IMG/VR virus record: IMGVR_UViG_3300009185_000001
Coordinates: 128,001-192,000 of that record
Reading direction: 5' to 3' (one strand)
DNA from: a virus
Lineage: Duplodnaviria > Caudoviricetes
Length of the DNA: 64,000 nucleotides
A model generated the notes under the pieces. The model ran no database searches. It was not told the origin of the DNA and worked only from the letters and a program-made list of their open reading frames with translations. Below are positions 41,311 to 53,030 of this stretch, one piece after another. The position numbers and the translations under genes are program-made. Every line of letters starts with the position of its first letter. Position 1 is the stretch's first letter.

Positions 41311-44300
41311 TTAATTGCAACCGTAAATATTATATTTAGTATCACTTGAATACCAACCAGCAGGAGTCAATAAATTACCAGAATTATCATACGTTCCTCT
41401 TTTTCTCCATCCAAAAAATTCAAATGCAAATGTATATATTCCAACAATTAATGAAATTAAATTATTTGTTTGAAGAATTTCTACTAAATTTAAATTATTT
41501 GTGGAATTTCCGGATTGGCTTTGATTTATTATATTTCCAAATTGATCAATTTCTATCGTAACTGTTATGAAACATGCTTTATGCCTGCTAAAACCTTCTT
41601 CGGGTGTAGATTCTAAAGAATCATAACTATAAATTAACGTTCCATTATTTGTGCAATTATCTGTTGATGGAGGAGTCGGTGGATCGGTTGCTAATGGTGC
41701 GGTTGCCGTTAGCTTTGAATAAGGATCTTTAAACAAACCATAATCATTTCCATATATATCATTCTTCCAATCGGTCATTGTTCCTTTGTTTACAAGAAGT
41801 TCTTTTATTCTATTTTCATAAGAAGATGCTAAAACTTCTCTTCTTAATGTTATTGGATATTTTTCCGCGTAATCCCATGTAGATGGTAAAGGAAATTTCC
41901 AAAAATCAAAATCATCATTTTGTCTACAAAGACCTAAATTATTTCTTTTAATTATTTCGTATTTAGATTGATAAGGAGTAAATTTTTGATTGTTTAATGT
42001 ATCTGTTATTCTACCAGCAGCATCCGAAGAACTATAAGATTCCATCATCCAGCGATTATCAATGTCAGTAATCATGGAAGGAGAGTATTGATCTTTTTTT
42101 GTCAACCCTCTCTGTCTTCCGCTAAATTTATTTGTATTTAGAAACAATCTTTCTGCACTTATACTGTCTATAAATGTAAGAGTATCCTTACTAACTTCCA
42201 TGGAATATCCTCTTCCTCTCCAATATGAAACTCCTAGATTTTCAGGAAGCATATATTCTCCTAATTGCTTTTCTGATTTAGCTAAAGATGGTAATGAAAT
42301 AGTGGCTACTGTAGGATAGAACACATTATTCATGTTTGCATACGGATGAAAAGCTTCTACAGCAACCGCAGTATTAAAAACCGCAAAGGTATTTAAACAC
42401 TTGTTTCTTAGATAAAAATCTTGTGTGTATGTAAAAGCATTACGAGCATAATAGTTATACTTGGTTGGTATAAACGAAGAATAGCTTTCTAGTATAATAT
42501 CACTTGGTTCCTCTGAACTATAGGCAATTAAATCTAAAGTATTACCGTTTCTAAAAATGTCTTGTAAATTTGAAAAATCTTTATAAAATACTATTTTATT
42601 CCATTGATAAGAAGATAGCAAAACATTTAAAGTTAAAGGTTGTGTCCATAATAAATTTGTAATCCCTCTTCTTTGATATGTCATGAAACTTCCATTGGAT
42701 AGTGTCATATAAGATATTTCTGGTTGATGAACAGGTAGATATCCATCTATAAATCTTACTTGACCACCGAAGTACATTAATTGTTTTTCAAAGTGTTGAT
42801 CTAAATTTTCTTCTGGTTTTGTATATGATTTAGCCCAAAATGGTTTTCCCCCATATCCTAAACCAACTCCAGTAAGTTGAAACGAATTTGTAGAATAGTC
42901 CCATCCATTCAATTTCATATTTATTGTAAATGATATTGAAGGAGTAGTAAAAGAAGTATTATTTGATCCTTCATAGGAAACTTCTGATCTGTGTATGTAA
43001 GTCAAATAATCACCAGAACGCAATACCATATCAGAAATATCGTTTGTTGCAATCCATTCTCCAAAAGTATTTCTAATTGCTTTATACCAAGTCGGTACAA
43101 TCGATAGTTTAGAATAACTAAACAATGAAGCCAGATATTGAATAAAATTATTTAAATTTCCTTCTCCATCATACAAATATTTTTGTAAATTAAAGTACCC
43201 ATTTCTACTAGCAATTTGTTGCATATTTTCATTGAAATATGTATTAGGACCAATATCTACCGCATATATTTGTGTTCCTTTGTTTTTTAATTCAAGAGAA
43301 TATGGAACGGCACTTCCAACATTTATTGTTTCATAACCATCGCTCAATATGATTATATTCTTTATAGCATTACTTCTTGGTACGTTTCTATTTGTTTTAA
43401 ATTCTGCCTTTTTCTGAATAATTGCATTTAAAGAATTACAAATTTCAAAAAGACTGTCTGGTTCATTATTATCATATATTGTAGTATTTAAAATATAATC
43501 TGAAAGATACAGTGCATTGTATATGTCAGTCTGAGCAGTGTCTTTTATTGATTGTGATAAAATATCCTGAATAGCAAAATTAATTACATTCAAATCATTA
43601 GTTAAATAAGTGGCAACTAAAGCATTTTCATTGAAAGAAATTATTGAAATCTGTACATTTACATTTCCATTGATTAAGCTAGAAGCAAATTCTTTAACTA
43701 TTTCTATTGTTTTTTGTATGTCTTTGTTTTGTGAATAGCTTTTATCTATGACTATTGATATGTCAAAAACATTATCAGAAGTATTTGTGGTTATTCCTCT
43801 AATGTTTTTATATGGATAATTTACTATTAAATAAGGAGATGCATTATTTTCTTGCTCTGTTGTGCTTGCTACTAAATCACTTCTGAAAGATGTTCTATAA
43901 TATGTATATCTTCTTCCAGTTTTTAAAACCATTCTAGAACCATTTCCTGTTTTCCAAATACCACTACCCCAACCAACTTGTTTATCTCCAAATATTTCAT
44001 CTAATTTATAATAAGAAAATTGAGGACTTTGTAAAGGATTTAAACCTCTTGTATCCAACCAAGTATTAAAAGCAAAATCGGCTCCTAACCCCTGTGGATC
44101 AGCAAATAAATAATCTGCCATTCCGTTATAATCAGTTACCACTTCTCCTGAATGTCCTATTGGAGAATATTTTGTAGATTTACATCTACACTTTGTCCAT
44201 GCAGGTTTAGCATCAAATGGATCCGGATTTTGATAGTTTTGATTTGTATAATAATTATGAGGAGAACGTTTTACATACGGACAATCCGCAGAGTGTTCCC

Positions 44301-46230
44301 TATAAAAGAAAACATCATCCGCTATAGTATCCTCATCCATCCAAACAAACGAAACTTTTTGCTTTGGATTTATTTTAGCACATAATCCTCCCTGAACGAC
44401 ACCATCTATATGAGAAGCACAGTATATAGCATTGGTATCATATATAGAAATAGGATTCCCTCCATCTCTATTTAATAATTGAATAGACCCTGCTCCTAGC
44501 CATGCGGCTTCAATCGGATCTTCTGTTTTTGTATTTAATTTATATATTAAATCCGCATTATTAAAAGAATTTCCTGCAACAGCACCCGTCATTATTTTCG
44601 TAGCATCTACTTCAGAAAGATTAATCGGTAAGCAAGTATCATCTAAAACAGTAATTGGAAGATTTTCATTTAAGGCATCATATTTTAAAATAGGCCATGC
44701 AATATCATTGGTTCCCTCTGATATAGGAAGGTCTGTCTTTTCAAATTTATATAAATATGCTTGTTCTGTTTCACCAGAAAGAGCATCGCTATATGTAGGA
44801 TTTATTCCAGATCCAAAAGATCTTTTTGTCAACGTATCGGCTTCATCTGAAAATTTTTCTGAAAATGCATTGCTATAAACTAAATTCGAATCATTTATGT
44901 ATATAGGAGAGGCAGCAGAGTTTGGAAGAGTATTTGTATAATATTGAGTTAGAATTTCTTTCTTTTGCTCATCCAATAGCTTTAAGTATAAAAAATAATC
45001 ATCATCGTTTAAACTATATCCATCCCAAAGACTTCCTTTTGATGTCAATTTAAATCCAGGATACGGATATATAAATTCTCTCGATGTTTGTGCATTAATC
45101 GTAAACTGCATTTTATCTTCTGCTTTTATTATATTCGGACCTTTAAGCCATGCACCCTCAAGATTTCCTGATTTGTCTGTAAAAAATAAATCAGAATTAG
45201 TATAATCATCACCACCCGCTGCACCAGATTTTACAAACGAGGAATCATTAATAAGAATTGGATTGTATACATTATTAAAAACCGTTTCATCAACAATTCT
45301 GTCACCAGAAGGCCAGTAGAACCAATTATTTCCTTGCTCTAAATCTATATTCATAGTGAAATCTGGTTGATTTATTTCACTTGCCCTAATTGCCGTTAAC
45401 CCATATACAGTTTCACCTAAATATTGTTGTGTTGCAATAATTTCATTATATATTAAATTGCTTGCATTGGCAGACAATGCAGCAGTTGAAAGAGTAGGAA
45501 TTTCTAAAAGATATTGATTAAATAATCTAGACAATGGAGTATCCGCAACTCTTGAAAGATATCTAGTCGAAAGCAATTCCAACACTTCGTTTTCTTCTAA
45601 ACCTTGAAATGGTATTTCATTAACAACCTGTTCTAAATCAACATACTGATTTATTGAAATAGAAGGATCAGAGTCATGATAATTCTGAGAATCGTGCAAT
45701 TCTTCTAATTCTACGAAAAAATTTCCACTAACTGATGAAAGATCAGGAAAATAATTTGATAAAGAAGATATAGGAACCTGTGTAATATAATTCTCGTCTT
45801 TAGTAAATCCTTTTAAAATATATTCATACATCAATGCTTCTAGTCCCATGTTAGAACCTGCCAGATTATAACGAAGCTTTGCATTTTTTACAGACTCTCT
45901 TTTATATGATAATACTTTGCAAACTTCCTTTAGCTTTTTAACGAAATATGGAATTGCAAATATTAATTCTTCATCATTTTTATAATCCAAATCTGCTAGA
46001 AATAAATCTTTTTCTTGCGTACCAAAAAGAAAATTTAAATCTTTTAATAATTGTATGTAATTTTCTTTAATAGCATTGCTATTATTAGAAGTTAATAAAG
46101 TATTACTCCTATACCATTCGCGTAAATATTCTGAATAATATTCCTGTGCGGTATCTGGTTTTAAATTTTTCTGATACTTCAACCAAGTAGGATAAGTTAA
46201 AGGAGATACTGTATTTAATGGTGCTGACAT
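41311..46230 (-). CDS. Giant virion protein (1639 aa) containing a VWA domain
   Basis: MIDAS-like VIDKSYS...TDIYNAL...IIILSDG at about 43150-43770. Confidence 0.72.
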   Translation of the reverse strand: MSAPLNTVSPLTYPTWLKYQKNLKPDTAQEYYSEYLREWYRSNTLLTSNNSNAIKENYIQLLKDLNFLFGTQEKDLFLADLDYKNDEELIFAIPYFVKKLKEVCKVLSYKRESVKNAKLRYNLAGSNMGLEALMYEYILKGFTKDENYITQVPISSLSNYFPDLSSVSGNFFVELEELHDSQNYHDSDPSISINQYVDLEQVVNEIPFQGLEENEVLELLSTRYLSRVADTPLSRLFNQYLLEIPTLSTAALSANASNLIYNEIIATQQYLGETVYGLTAIRASEINQPDFTMNIDLEQGNNWFYWPSGDRIVDETVFNNVYNPILINDSSFVKSGAAGGDDYTNSDLFFTDKSGNLEGAWLKGPNIIKAEDKMQFTINAQTSREFIYPYPGFKLTSKGSLWDGYSLNDDDYFLYLKLLDEQKKEILTQYYTNTLPNSAASPIYINDSNLVYSNAFSEKFSDEADTLTKRSFGSGINPTYSDALSGETEQAYLYKFEKTDLPISEGTNDIAWPILKYDALNENLPITVLDDTCLPINLSEVDATKIMTGAVAGNSFNNADLIYKLNTKTEDPIEAAWLGAGSIQLLNRDGGNPISIYDTNAIYCASHIDGVVQGGLCAKINPKQKVSFVWMDEDTIADDVFFYREHSADCPYVKRSPHNYYTNQNYQNPDPFDAKPAWTKCRCKSTKYSPIGHSGEVVTDYNGMADYLFADPQGLGADFAFNTWLDTRGLNPLQSPQFSYYKLDEIFGDKQVGWGSGIWKTGNGSRMVLKTGRRYTYYRTSFRSDLVASTTEQENNASPYLIVNYPYKNIRGITTNTSDNVFDISIVIDKSYSQNKDIQKTIEIVKEFASSLINGNVNVQISIISFNENALVATYLTNDLNVINFAIQDILSQSIKDTAQTDIYNALYLSDYILNTTIYDNNEPDSLFEICNSLNAIIQKKAEFKTNRNVPRSNAIKNIIILSDGYETINVGSAVPYSLELKNKGTQIYAVDIGPNTYFNENMQQIASRNGYFNLQKYLYDGEGNLNNFIQYLASLFSYSKLSIVPTWYKAIRNTFGEWIATNDISDMVLRSGDYLTYIHRSEVSYEGSNNTSFTTPSISFTINMKLNGWDYSTNSFQLTGVGLGYGGKPFWAKSYTKPEENLDQHFEKQLMYFGGQVRFIDGYLPVHQPEISYMTLSNGSFMTYQRRGITNLLWTQPLTLNVLLSSYQWNKIVFYKDFSNLQDIFRNGNTLDLIAYSSEEPSDIILESYSSFIPTKYNYYARNAFTYTQDFYLRNKCLNTFAVFNTAVAVEAFHPYANMNNVFYPTVATISLPSLAKSEKQLGEYMLPENLGVSYWRGRGYSMEVSKDTLTFIDSISAERLFLNTNKFSGRQRGLTKKDQYSPSMITDIDNRWMMESYSSSDAAGRITDTLNNQKFTPYQSKYEIIKRNNLGLCRQNDDFDFWKFPLPSTWDYAEKYPITLRREVLASSYENRIKELLVNKGTMTDWKNDIYGNDYGLFKDPYSKLTATAPLATDPPTPPSTDNCTNNGTLIYSYDSLESTPEEGFSRHKACFITVTIEIDQFGNIINQSQSGNSTNNLNLVEILQTNNLISLIVGIYTFAFEFFGWRKRGTYDNSGNLLTPAGWYSSDTKYNIYGCN

Positions 46231-50986: not shown

Positions 50987-51500
50987 CATGATTTCGAATG
51001 ACAAAGCTTGGTTGGTAAATAATAAGAGTTTCTGTGGTGGTTACTCTTATTATTTCGGAAGTCCTACCTTCTGTGGTGGTAGGTAGGACTTCCTTAAATT
51101 TGTGAGTTGGTTCCCGATGAGCCAATGGGACTGGGAATACTCGGTCGAAACCAAAATCGGAAATTGATATTTGACATTTTAATTTTTTGGTAGATAGAGT
51201 AGTAATACCTATCCCTGTGGACTCGAAAGAGGAGTGATATCTGAAAAGAAGCGTTTCGAGAGTATTCGCACTCACTTACCAAATAATATTTTAAACCCGC
51301 CATGCCTCTGCTTGCAAGAGTAGTTTCTGAAGGCCAAGGCAACTAAGCAAGTCATGCATAATTTGGCGGGTGTTTTTATCAAGCGCAGATGCTATTTAAA
51401 AAGCTCTACCGCGACAGATGACAATGCAATGTTTCCGGAAACAACATTTAATCTGTAGGGAACTTCTCCTTAATAATCAAAAAAGAATGAGAAGTCTTGG
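50987..51500 (+). ncRNA. Unidentified highly structured RNA, 5' part
   Basis: Consecutive stems at 51017-51055, 51057-51093, 51188-51281, 51295-51372 and 51462-51496; GNRA-type loops; no credible ORF. Confidence 0.6.
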
Positions 51501-52000: not shown

Positions 52001-52015
52001 TGTAAATAGTTTATA

Positions 52016-52088
52016 TGCGGGTTACAGTTCTGGCGAACTGAGGGGTTTCATAAGCCTCTTTAGGTGGATTCGATTTCCACACCCGCAA
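52016..52088 (+). tRNA. tRNA with CAU anticodon (Met or lysidine-Ile2)
   Basis: UGCGGGU/ACCCGCA, D-stem CAGU/ACUG, loop UUCAUAA, T-arm GUGGA-UUCGAUU-UCCAC; no encoded CCA. Confidence 0.8.
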
Positions 52089-52096
52089 TTTTTAAT

Positions 52097-52231
52097 TCCT
52101 CATTAGACGAATTGGTAAAGTCACGGGACTGTGGGAGAAGCAGGTTAGCGTAATATGAGTTCGATTCTCATAACTCCAAGTCTAATCCCGCGCAGCAATG
52201 CATTCTTCGTTCAAGTCGAAGATGAGGAGCA
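52097..52231 (+). tRNA. Type II tRNA body with a 50-nt insertion in the anticodon loop
   Basis: UCCUCAU/AUGAGGA, D-arm GAC/GUC, anticodon stem CGGGA/UCCCG, variable arm GCA-GCAA-UGC, T-arm CUUCG-UUCAAGU-CGAAG; insert 52131-52180. Confidence 0.75.
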
Positions 52232-52289
52232 TTTTAGAATAGATAAAAAGGTTCTCGATGATCCAGATAAAAAAAATCGAAAATACTTC

Positions 52290-52318
52290 TTGACCTTTTC
52301 AGAAAAAATTGTTAGAGT
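52290..52318 (+). promoter_or_regulatory. sigma70-type promoter for the second tRNA group
   Basis: TTGACC-17-TAGAGT. Confidence 0.6.
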
Positions 52319-52393
52319 ATTTGAAGATTAGTAAAGGTTATCTGAACCTTGTAAAAAAATCAGAAAAGATTTTTGATAGAATAGAATTTATAT

Positions 52394-52736
52394 GGTCGAG
52401 TGGTGGAATGGCAGACACAACGGACTTAGAGAAATTTGAGCTTTGATTGGGAAACCTTTCAAATGTAACTTGTCAAATTCGGTGAAGGGTTTAAACTCCT
52501 AATACCGAGCCAAGCATCGAAAGATGAAGGTGTAGAGACTTGACGGCAAGAACCTAAAGCGAAAGCAATGGTTAAGGTAAAGTCCAGACTACAAACAGAT
52601 TGAGAAAAGTAAATCCCGAAAGGATTGAACAGAGCGGTAAATACGCTGACTGACGAATCTGGTAACGAAAGTTATAGTAGTAAGAAAATCCGTTGCCAGT
52701 AATGGCGTGAGGATTCGAGTTCCTCCTCGACTACCA
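52394..52736 (+). tRNA. trnL: tRNA-Leu(UAA) split by a group I intron
   Basis: Exons 52394-52427 and 52685-52736 rejoin as ACGGA-CUUAAAA-UCCGU; acceptor GGUCGAG/CUCGACU; ACCA. Confidence 0.92.
52428..52684 (+). mobile_element. Group I intron (257 nt) in the tRNA-Leu anticodon, no ORF
   Basis: Follows U34 and ends in G. P1 CUU/AG with UUGAG; AAAUUCGGUGAA; AAUACCGAGCCAAG; GUAGAGACUU; AAGGUAAAGUCC; P9.0-like ACUAC/GUAGU. Confidence 0.9.
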
Positions 52737-52744
52737 ATTTAAAA

Positions 52745-52838
52745 GCAAGGTTAGTGTAACTGGAAGCACCGACAGACTTATAATCTGTGTATCCTAGATT
52801 TGGATCGAGCGTGGGTTCAATTCCCACACCTTGCACCA
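52745..52838 (+). tRNA. trnI: tRNA-Ile(UAU) with long variable arm
   Basis: GCAAGGU/ACCUUGC, ACAGA-CUUAUAA-UCUGU, 22-nt variable region with AUCC/GGAU, GUGGG-UUCAAUU-CCCAC, ACCA. Confidence 0.8.
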
Positions 52839-52861: not shown

Positions 52862-52933
52862 AGGGGTGAAGCATATTGGTCATGCGCTCTGCTCATAACG
52901 GAAGGAAAGTGGGTTCGATCCCCATCGCCCCTA
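52862..52933 (+). tRNA. tRNA with CAU anticodon (Met/Ile2)
   Basis: AGGGGUG/CGCCCCU, GCAU/AUGC, loop CUCAUAA, GUGGG-UUCGAUC-CCCAU. Confidence 0.8.
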
Positions 52934-52945
52934 CATTTTTCATAA

Positions 52946-53030
52946 GCACTTGTAACTCAACGCTCTTCTAAAGCGTCCTTTAACGAGTAATTGGATATAA
53001 GGTCTGTTGGTTCGAATCCAACCAAGTGCG
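52946..53030 (+). tRNA. Rearranged tRNA-Arg(UCU)-like gene
   Basis: Acceptor GCACUUG/CAAGUGC, T-arm GUUGG-UUCGAAU-CCAAC and anticodon arm ACGCU-CUUCUAA-AGCGU are intact, but the D-arm parts are out of order. Confidence 0.7.

Follow-up and report, generated by a model that had tools for sequence, protein, structure and literature searches.

Bacteria and their viruses are, to our knowledge, thought to possess self-splicing tRNA introns only, protein-dependent removal being regarded as an archaeal and eukaryal trait, and we know of no description of a protein-excised tRNA intron route for bacteria or their viruses. The tRNA introns of archaea and eukaryotes present a bulge-helix-bulge to the Sen/EndA endonuclease, and the exons are joined by the RtcB or the Trl1 ligase. 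In the tRNA repair of phage T4, PrrC nicks the anticodon loop of tRNA-Lys, Pnkp heals the ends and Rnl1 seals them; Rnl1-type ligases are so far known to us for repair only. tRNA-shaped modules that recruit RNase P and RNase Z occur at the 3' end of MALAT1 (mascRNA), in the t-elements of plant mitochondria and in mitochondrial tRNA punctuation.

The closest published match to the locus reported here is found in the Lak megaphages, whose tRNAs carry introns described as 'enigmatic', one of which was suggested to encode a tRNA itself (Devoto et al., 2019; PMC6784885). These introns are 79-114 nt in length, possess an acceptor-like stem along with a T arm of the TTCGAAT type, and have no Rfam match (Table S6; PMC6784885). 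No mechanism was offered in this Nat Microbiol study (Devoto et al., 2019; PMC6784885), and our full-text literature search found no later paper with a mechanism for such introns. The Lak introns of 2019 hence hinted at a non-self-splicing route that was left unexplained.

The window, the whole stretch of 64,000 nucleotides that we analyzed, corresponds to bases 128001-192000 of a 202,880-bp phage genome that has direct terminal repeats and is rated complete; the sequencing runs containing this phage are from freshwater lakes, and its T4-type genes imply a bacterial host. On its plus strand, the window has a tRNA cluster of 1 kb, which includes a 133-nt gene (52097-52229, plus strand) whose anticodon is split by a 50-nt insert. 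We read it as an intron-bearing tRNA gene whose intron, shaped like a miniature tRNA, would be cut by the nucleases of tRNA end maturation and sealed by a phage ligase, and we assign a probability of about 0.5 to this reading. The parts of the gene are as follows.

52097..52132, plus strand: 5' exon (ARAGORN -i and sequence; end placed by homology)
52097-52103, plus strand: 5' strand of the acceptor stem, 5' exon (ARAGORN -i)
52106-52122, plus strand: D arm with a 3-bp stem, 5' exon (ARAGORN -i)
52124-52128, plus strand: 5' strand of the anticodon stem, 5' exon (ARAGORN -i)
52129-52132, plus strand: loop bases C32 U33 G34 U35 of the 5' exon (end by homology)
52133..52182 (alternatives 52132-52181 and 52131-52180), plus strand: 50-nt mini-tRNA-shaped intron (fold, L160/L222 alignment, pair counts and covariance model R1)
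52133-52139, plus strand: acceptor-like 5' strand GGGAGAA of the intron
52140-52149, plus strand: D-like hairpin of the intron, with the D-loop GG kept
52150-52154, plus strand: five-base connector of the intron
52155-52171, plus strand: T arm of the intron, 5-bp stem and 7-nt loop UUCGAUU at 52160-52166
52154-52172, plus strand: sixth T-arm pair of the intron
52172-52178, plus strand: acceptor-like 3' strand of the intron, seven bases
52179, plus strand: discriminator-like A of the intron, invariant
52180-52182, plus strand: 3-nt tail of the intron, G and two variable bases
52183..52229, plus strand: 3' exon (ARAGORN -i; cloverleaf fold of the spliced RNA)
52183-52185, plus strand: U36 A37 A38 of the 3' exon
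52186-52190, plus strand: 3' strand of the anticodon stem, 3' exon
52191-52204, plus strand: 14-nt variable arm of the 3' exon, 3-bp stem and GCAA loop
52205-52221, plus strand: T arm of the 3' exon
52222-52228, plus strand: 3' strand of the acceptor stem, 3' exon
52229, plus strand: discriminator G of the 3' exon

When introns are allowed, ARAGORN recovers a class II cloverleaf of 84 nt (52097-52230) that holds the 50-nt insert within its anticodon loop, and it thereby reproduces what an earlier interpretation made from the letters alone (the sequence-only reading) had proposed. Default ARAGORN and the Rfam gathering scan both miss the split gene at 52097-52229; since standard bacterial tRNA finders miss such genes, phage tRNA sets, together with inferences on codon supply and recoding, are undercounted. 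The tRNA had been proposed to extend to 52231, but its discriminator G is position 52229, and the CA at 52230-52231 lies outside of the tRNA. With the insert removed, the joined exons (83 nt) adopt the cloverleaf as their minimum free energy fold. In the unspliced RNA, the nested cloverleaf (-34.5) lies 1 kcal/mol above the minimum free energy fold (-35.5). The latter contains a helix between the intron's GUGGGA and the 3' strand of the anticodon stem, which we treat as incidental because it is not conserved in L160 or L222, two relatives described below.

Folded on its own, the insert takes on the very structure that had been claimed for it: GGAG/CUCC closes a 2-bp hairpin, GC-AGGUUA-GC, and a 6-bp arm, UAUGAG-UUCGAUU-CUCAUA. 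The energy of this fold (-9.5 kcal/mol, z -0.9) is unexceptional, 35 of 200 shuffles being equally stable; a chance fold is excluded by the compensatory changes in the homologues of the insert and not by its energy. With the 5' junction set by homology, the parts of the intron follow those of a tRNA in order over positions 1-76, and only bases 8-9 and the anticodon arm are missing. Counted from the sequence, the acceptor-like region comprises seven layers, four Watson-Crick pairs and three non-standard ones that flank them, with a G.R mismatch as the first acceptor-like pair, and the first intron base occupies layer 12 from the T loop (5-bp T stem plus seven layers). The 5' junction reads U at -1 and G at +1, and the 3' junction lies past a four-base single-stranded tail (the A plus 3 nt), where mature tRNAs end; the sequence of this tail is AGNN and not NCCA. 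The earlier idea of a nested tRNA remnant consequently holds with respect to the shape, that of a tRNA minus its anticodon arm, but not with respect to a relic, as the element appears to be maintained and mobile.

To find relatives, IMG/VR was scanned for two T-loop motifs 22-50 nt apart, a spacing impossible for tandem tRNAs. At least 120 loci were obtained, and many of those listed represent nested tRNA-like arrangements of several kinds. The insert of one of these loci, L160, is clearly homologous to that of the window. Pattern scans contributed the genes at L180, L181 and L197, which are identical to that of L160 and make four samples in all, and L222 as a distinct third member, so that the family has three distinct members: the window, the L160 group and L222. 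The virome search for the same architecture, proposed earlier as a check, thus yielded homologous inserts, and the insert is not unique and unstructured, a case that had been considered as well, since two other tRNA genes carry it with its fold kept. The inserts of L160 and L222 are 49 nt long, sit at the same position of the anticodon loop as that of the window, and are 80% (L160) and 88% (L222) identical to it, with exons that are about 51% identical. From this disparity it follows that the insert either moved between non-orthologous tRNA genes or is constrained more strongly than its hosts.

In the three-way alignment, the proposed structure is paired in 98% of the cells, compared with 50% or less once the partners have been slid. 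Two compensatory double changes are located in the intron, one from C-G to U-A in the D-like stem and one from U-A to C-G in the T stem; the four other double changes of the alignment are located in the anticodon stems of the hosts. The support that three sequences lend to a conserved intron fold is modest but consistent. In all three members, CUGU precedes the GGGAG core, exactly five bases separate CUCC from UAA, and removal of the insert gives a 7-nt loop with U33 and A37.

Covariance model R1 scores 93-95 bits on its own training sequences, which is no independent support because these are the sequences it was trained on, and it detected no new member among all loci collected here. In IMG/VR, a pattern for the insert core returned the L160 group only, two looser patterns returned no further member, and 2 of the 41 matches of a metagenome pattern scan were real. 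No family member was found among GenBank phages by blastn, the best hit being an 18-nt T-arm match to Lak-A2, or in scans of prokaryote genomes. IMG/VR contains no close relative of the window's host tRNA, either with or without the insert, apart from one chance match in a coding region. An exact search of IMG/VR for the 19-nt T arm gave ordinary tRNAs and one free-standing element only. The latter (L024:6422-6463, minus strand) is a mini-tRNA-like element that lies outside of a recognizable tRNA on a 193-kb viral contig; it combines a T arm identical to that of the insert with a GC-UGGU-GC hairpin and a closing stem, and it scores 25.8 bits with R1.

One could envision the insert as selfish DNA that stays in place for good, with an interrupted tRNA that is dead or dying and whose loss is tolerated. 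However, the cloverleaf stems of the host are intact in three different tRNAs, and the interrupted tRNA is the sole one of its kind in each cluster; furthermore, an RNA fold kept by compensatory changes is needless for a parasite at the DNA level, and the element is identical in the four L160-type samples and in the strains of three other sequencing runs (X2, X3 and X8). We therefore consider a selfish insertion unlikely, despite the odd body of the window's tRNA, whose acceptor is Asn-like and whose D arm and variable arm are Leu-like, despite RNA contigs that show the unspliced form only, and despite the fact that no protein-dependent tRNA splicing is known in bacteria. Judged from the sequences compared here, the split gene is a real, conserved feature with a mini-tRNA-shaped intron that is probably mobile, and the insert is in good likelihood an intron that is removed.

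The window by itself permits three readings of the junctions: a cut after U33, as placed by ARAGORN and by the sequence-only reading, yields the anticodon UCU, one after G34 yields GCU, and one after U35 yields GUU. The exons of L222 are 88% identical to an intron-less tRNA-Asn(GUU) of the related phage G001 (211-kb, 99%-complete), and a MAFFT alignment of the two tRNAs has a clean 49-nt gap between CTGT and TAA, which places the junction of the family between positions 35 and 36. By this rule, L160 is Asn(GUU) too, and the uniform geometry of the three members leads to an intron at 52133-52182 and the loop CUGUUAA (Asn) in the window. Homology hence favors 52133-52182 as the most likely boundaries over the 52131-52180 claimed previously. 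The UCU anticodon that had been derived from a cut after U33 is probably wrong, because a tRNA-Arg(UCU) is already present at 52946-53030 and because L160 and L222 would receive anticodons with A34.

As to the mature product, we lean slightly toward a tRNA-Asn(GUU) with an expanded variable arm. The U1-A72 pair and G73 of the window tRNA speak for this identity, as do tRNA-Asn genes as its nearest class I neighbors once the variable arm has been trimmed, the codon usage of the phage (Asn 79 per 1000 versus AGY 23 per 1000; 3.4 times), and the common occurrence in this lineage of class I tRNAs with expanded variable arms, Ile in the window and G001 and Met in L160. What speaks against it are a D stem of 3 bp and a variable arm of 14 nt, both of them class II-like and similar to those of tRNA-Leu genes. 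In combination with G73, a class II body is what textbooks give for tRNA-Ser, and the long arm and G73, put forward earlier for a GCU (Ser) anticodon, retain their weight; however, this identity requires junctions one base off those of L222, whose orthology points to GUU, and neither the acceptor (U1-A72, C2-G71) nor the variable stem of only 3 bp resembles those of the relatives' tRNA-Ser genes, which start with GG or AG in G001 and G002 and exceed the window's tRNA in the length of their variable arms. tRNA-Ser(GCU) is consequently a possible but less probable product, and we deem a product that is neither of the two improbable.

The neighbors of the split gene in the cluster are the following.

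52016..52088, plus strand: tRNA-Met(CAU), 8 nt upstream of the split gene (ARAGORN)
52394..52736, plus strand: tRNA-Leu(UAA) with a 257-nt group I intron at 52428-52684 (ARAGORN -i; RF00028, 50.5 bits)
52745-52838, plus strand: tRNA-Ile(UAU) with a long variable arm (tRNA scans)
52862-52934, plus strand: second tRNA-Met (tRNA scans)
52946..53030, plus strand: tRNA-Arg(UCU) without a D arm (Rfam tRNA, 35.5 bits; anticodon loop CUUCUAA)

The variable region of tRNA-Ile(UAU) measures about 20 nt both in the window (52745-52838, 94 nt) and in G001 (147809-147898, minus strand, 90 nt); a class II-like arm on a class I isotype has thus been kept between the window phage and this distant relative, and the tRNA-Met of L160 (84 nt) likewise carries a class II-like arm on a class I isotype. 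In the long non-coding stretch upstream of the cluster, positions 51296-51371 weakly match the abiF RNA motif (28.1 bits against a gathering threshold of 37). In the strain of run X3, tRNA-Met (52016-52085) is swapped for 76 unrelated letters with both flanks being nearly identical, which looks like a cassette-like exchange within the tRNA cluster.

The insert is also present in Logan contigs of two further studies: X2 matches our record with 0 differences, whereas X3 shows 2 differences and 1 indel over 52085-52357. An assembly artefact, which had been considered for this locus, can be dismissed because these contigs are independent of our record. The insert is identical in the X2, X3 and X8 strains despite their differing flanks. 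In the RNA library X8, a 252-nt contig (record 26) spans 52009-52230 and thus tRNA-Met and the whole split gene in its unspliced form; its 3' end is 1 nt past the discriminator of the split tRNA, and 29 extra letters of this record have no placement. This contig is probably a precursor with processed ends, although contaminating DNA could also give it. The metatranscriptome contigs of X4 and X8, which lose rare variants, contain no joint across 52131-52183. The unspliced X8 contig is no more than a mild argument against splicing, since minority forms are lost in contigs and the capture of mature tRNAs is poor. As an internal control, we used the group I intron of tRNA-Leu(UAA): its joint (52427 to 52685) occurs in the RNA runs X4 and X8 and in no DNA run. 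One spliced tRNA-Leu RNA contig extends without mismatch into tRNA-Ile, which indicates that splicing of the tRNA-Leu intron precedes the cutting of the polycistronic precursor.

An X8 contig that represents the full unspliced form and ends at the 3' end of the tRNA would also be in line with the unspliced 133-nt RNA itself being the product, that is, a tRNA mimic with two elbows that serves, for instance, as a decoy for tRNA-binding defence nucleases or processing enzymes. Phage tRNA clusters include stable non-tRNA RNAs such as species 1 and 2 of T4, and these provide a precedent. A decoy or mimic had been listed among the options of the sequence-only reading, and this RNA-library contig is what can be said for it; the placement of the insert in different tRNA bodies, at exactly the point where its removal restores a sensible anticodon loop, is something for which a mimic has no need, and we judge this explanation to be improbable.

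Bacterial RNase P recognizes the stack of acceptor and T arm together with the T loop, has a preference for U(-1)/G(+1), and generates a 3'-OH on the upstream and a 5'-phosphate on the downstream product. The mini-tRNA fold would offer both junctions of the intron to the tRNA end-maturation nucleases of the cell. The predicted RNase P site at U(-1)/G(+1) falls between 52132 and 52133, at a distance of twelve stacked layers from the T loop, and that of a 3' endonuclease falls between 52182 and 52183, past the 4-nt tail; the two cuts would leave a 3'-OH and a 5'-phosphate in the nicked anticodon loop, which the Rnl1-like or the Rnl2-like ligase of the phage could then seal. The 5' junction derived from orthology and the RNase P site derived from structure, which were obtained independently, fall on the same position. 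The 3' cut is the weakest link of this model: RNase Z usually cuts directly 3' of the discriminator, a site three nt before the inferred 3' junction, and we know of no enzyme that cuts at such a non-CCA tail. Removal by RNase P, a 3' nuclease and a phage ligase is accordingly proposed here with reservation, albeit as the most likely route. Among the options raised by the sequence-only reading, a substrate for nuclease-ligase processing fits best, given at least three tRNA genes that are split at one position and whose 7-nt loop is restored upon removal.

The phage genome encodes an Rnl1-like ligase (PF09511, 48 bits; G000 42388-43485, minus strand), whose gene adjoins that of a metallophosphoesterase, and an Rnl2-like ligase (PF09414, 62 bits). 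Neither RtcB nor a tRNA-intron splicing endonuclease (PF01974) was found in it, nor a polynucleotide kinase above the Pfam cut-off; the lack of a kinase fits ends that already bear a 5'-phosphate. An Rnl1 that is 75% identical to that of the window phage is present on all three L160-type contigs, which are 5-25% complete each, and two of the three also possess Rnl2; G001, which is 99% complete and has a tRNA-Asn without the intron, possesses neither Rnl1 nor Rnl2. With two intron-bearing lineages set against one intron-less genome, this co-occurrence of ligase and intron is suggestive. Rnl1 homologues are widespread in this phage group (336 at E <=1e-30), and no split tRNA was present within 10 kb of Rnl1 in five relatives with an Rnl1 homologue. 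At a distance of up to about 1.5 kb upstream of Rnl1 and on the same strand, a metallophosphoesterase gene is found in the phage's own genome outside of the window (G000 42388-44516), in L160 (5887-8027) and in all five relatives whose flanks were examined (L287-L295). The two genes look like a conserved heal-and-seal pair for RNA repair.

This pair bears on another scenario, in which a dedicated endonuclease of the phage or its host that has gone unrecognized grips the elbow of the mini-tRNA, the metallophosphoesterase heals the ends and Rnl1 seals them, with no part for RNase P or 3'-end nucleases. It would explain why the metallophosphoesterase adjoins Rnl1 in the phage and its relatives, as in heal-and-seal cassettes, and why the 3' junction is mismatched to RNase Z; moreover, many ORFs around the cluster belong to no known family. 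That the 5' junction coincides with the +1 position of the mini-tRNA would be an accident in this scenario, however, 5'-OH ends would need a kinase, of which none exceeds the Pfam cut-off, and we found no candidate nuclease. A dedicated endonuclease therefore appears rather unlikely to us. Processing by end-maturation nucleases would, if it takes place, make the locus a third type of phage tRNA splicing, in which a portable cassette hijacks RNase P and a 3' endonuclease, an Rnl1-type ligase rejoins the loop, and the excised mini-tRNA may be stable; we advance this idea tentatively.

The site in the anticodon loop after a U, and a working group I intron 200 nt downstream, may bring to mind a degenerate or minimal group I-like intron that splices itself or is spliced in trans by the neighboring group I ribozymes. 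In agreement with the previous verdict that the insert is far too short to self-splice, its 50 nt contain no catalytic core (no P3-P9), and an Rfam search of 52131-52182 with E up to 10 gave no match to group I introns, self-cleaving ribozymes or other families. The observation that the insert follows a U and ends in G, made earlier with reference to group I rules, stands for its first half, U(-1) being present in all three members; the terminal G exists only with the boundaries chosen at that time, and the last intron base is otherwise C, U or G across the three members. No internal guide pairing is conserved, the trans-splicing suggestion has no support, and we consider any group I-like process highly improbable.

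Other short or nested inserts came to light. The tRNA just upstream of the split one on the L222 contig (L222:406-509) has an anticodon-loop insert of about 30 nt that lacks a T arm; if UUUGU were joined to AA, the anticodon would be that of Thr(UGU), and this contig would hence hold a second kind of short non-group-I insert. Four IMG/VR loci (L133, L170, L171 and L142) contain Tyr(GUA)-like tRNAs into which about 37 nt, including a T arm, are inserted on the 3' side of the anticodon. Two others (L104 and L134) contain Lak-like introns of 65-92 nt, built from a 5' hairpin and a mini-tRNA, in Thr(UGU)-like and Tyr(GUA)-like tRNAs for which the ARAGORN labels differ. At L223-L240, many phage tRNAs have an acceptor ending in CUCC and a stand-alone T-arm-like hairpin 15-35 nt downstream; these hairpins may be truncated tRNA copies or processing signals.

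With the introns of the Lak phages, the window's insert shares the location in the anticodon loop of a phage tRNA, a length too short for group I, the lack of an Rfam family, and an acceptor/T-arm module; both are identical across samples and vary in presence between relatives, and in both the 3' junction is a few nt past the acceptor-like stem (three to four in Lak). The Lak introns differ in possessing an extra 5' hairpin and an A-rich spacer, and they reside in Tyr, Phe, Thr and Gly tRNAs, where they were mapped to about 37/38 (PMC6784885), whereas the window's insert is a bare 49-50-nt module without a 5' hairpin at 35/36. In the notation for tRNA intron sites of Williams, 2020 (bioRxiv 10.1101/2020.01.27.920355), the window's site would be '4U'. 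Their similarity in sequence is limited to the 18-nt T-arm match, and the two are not sequence relatives; judged on sequence and fold, the intron of the window represents a sequence family of its own, Lak-like in kind but smaller. No example so far is smaller or cleaner: its 50 nt form a module that starts and stops where a tRNA-shaped fold has its 5' and 3' ends. The locus further adds a pair of genes with and without the intron, by which the junction is fixed, and ligases are encoded in the same genomes.

Group I introns of tRNA genes, such as that of tRNA-Leu in the window, resemble the insert in their anticodon-loop site after U and in their mobility between tRNA genes, but the insert has no catalytic core, measures 50 nt compared with about 200 or more, and has no conserved terminal G. 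Manual pairing of 52129-52133 with 52179-52185 gave no 3-4-3 motif of a bulge-helix-bulge intron. With the protein-spliced tRNA introns of archaea and eukaryotes, the insert shares its small size and its place in the anticodon loop and, under the proposal made here, removal by a nuclease and a ligase that are proteins; unlike them, it is located at 35/36 and not at 37/38, and the phage has no gene for their endonuclease or for RtcB. The proposed sealing of an anticodon-loop nick by an Rnl1-type ligase, and the vicinity of the Rnl1-like gene to a phosphoesterase gene, recall T4 repair, although T4 answers an attack by its host without any programmed excision, and no Pnkp-type kinase was found in this phage. 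In mascRNA, the t-elements and mitochondrial punctuation, finally, the RNAs flanking the tRNA-shaped module stay unjoined, whereas their rejoining at the locus described here would amount to true splicing.
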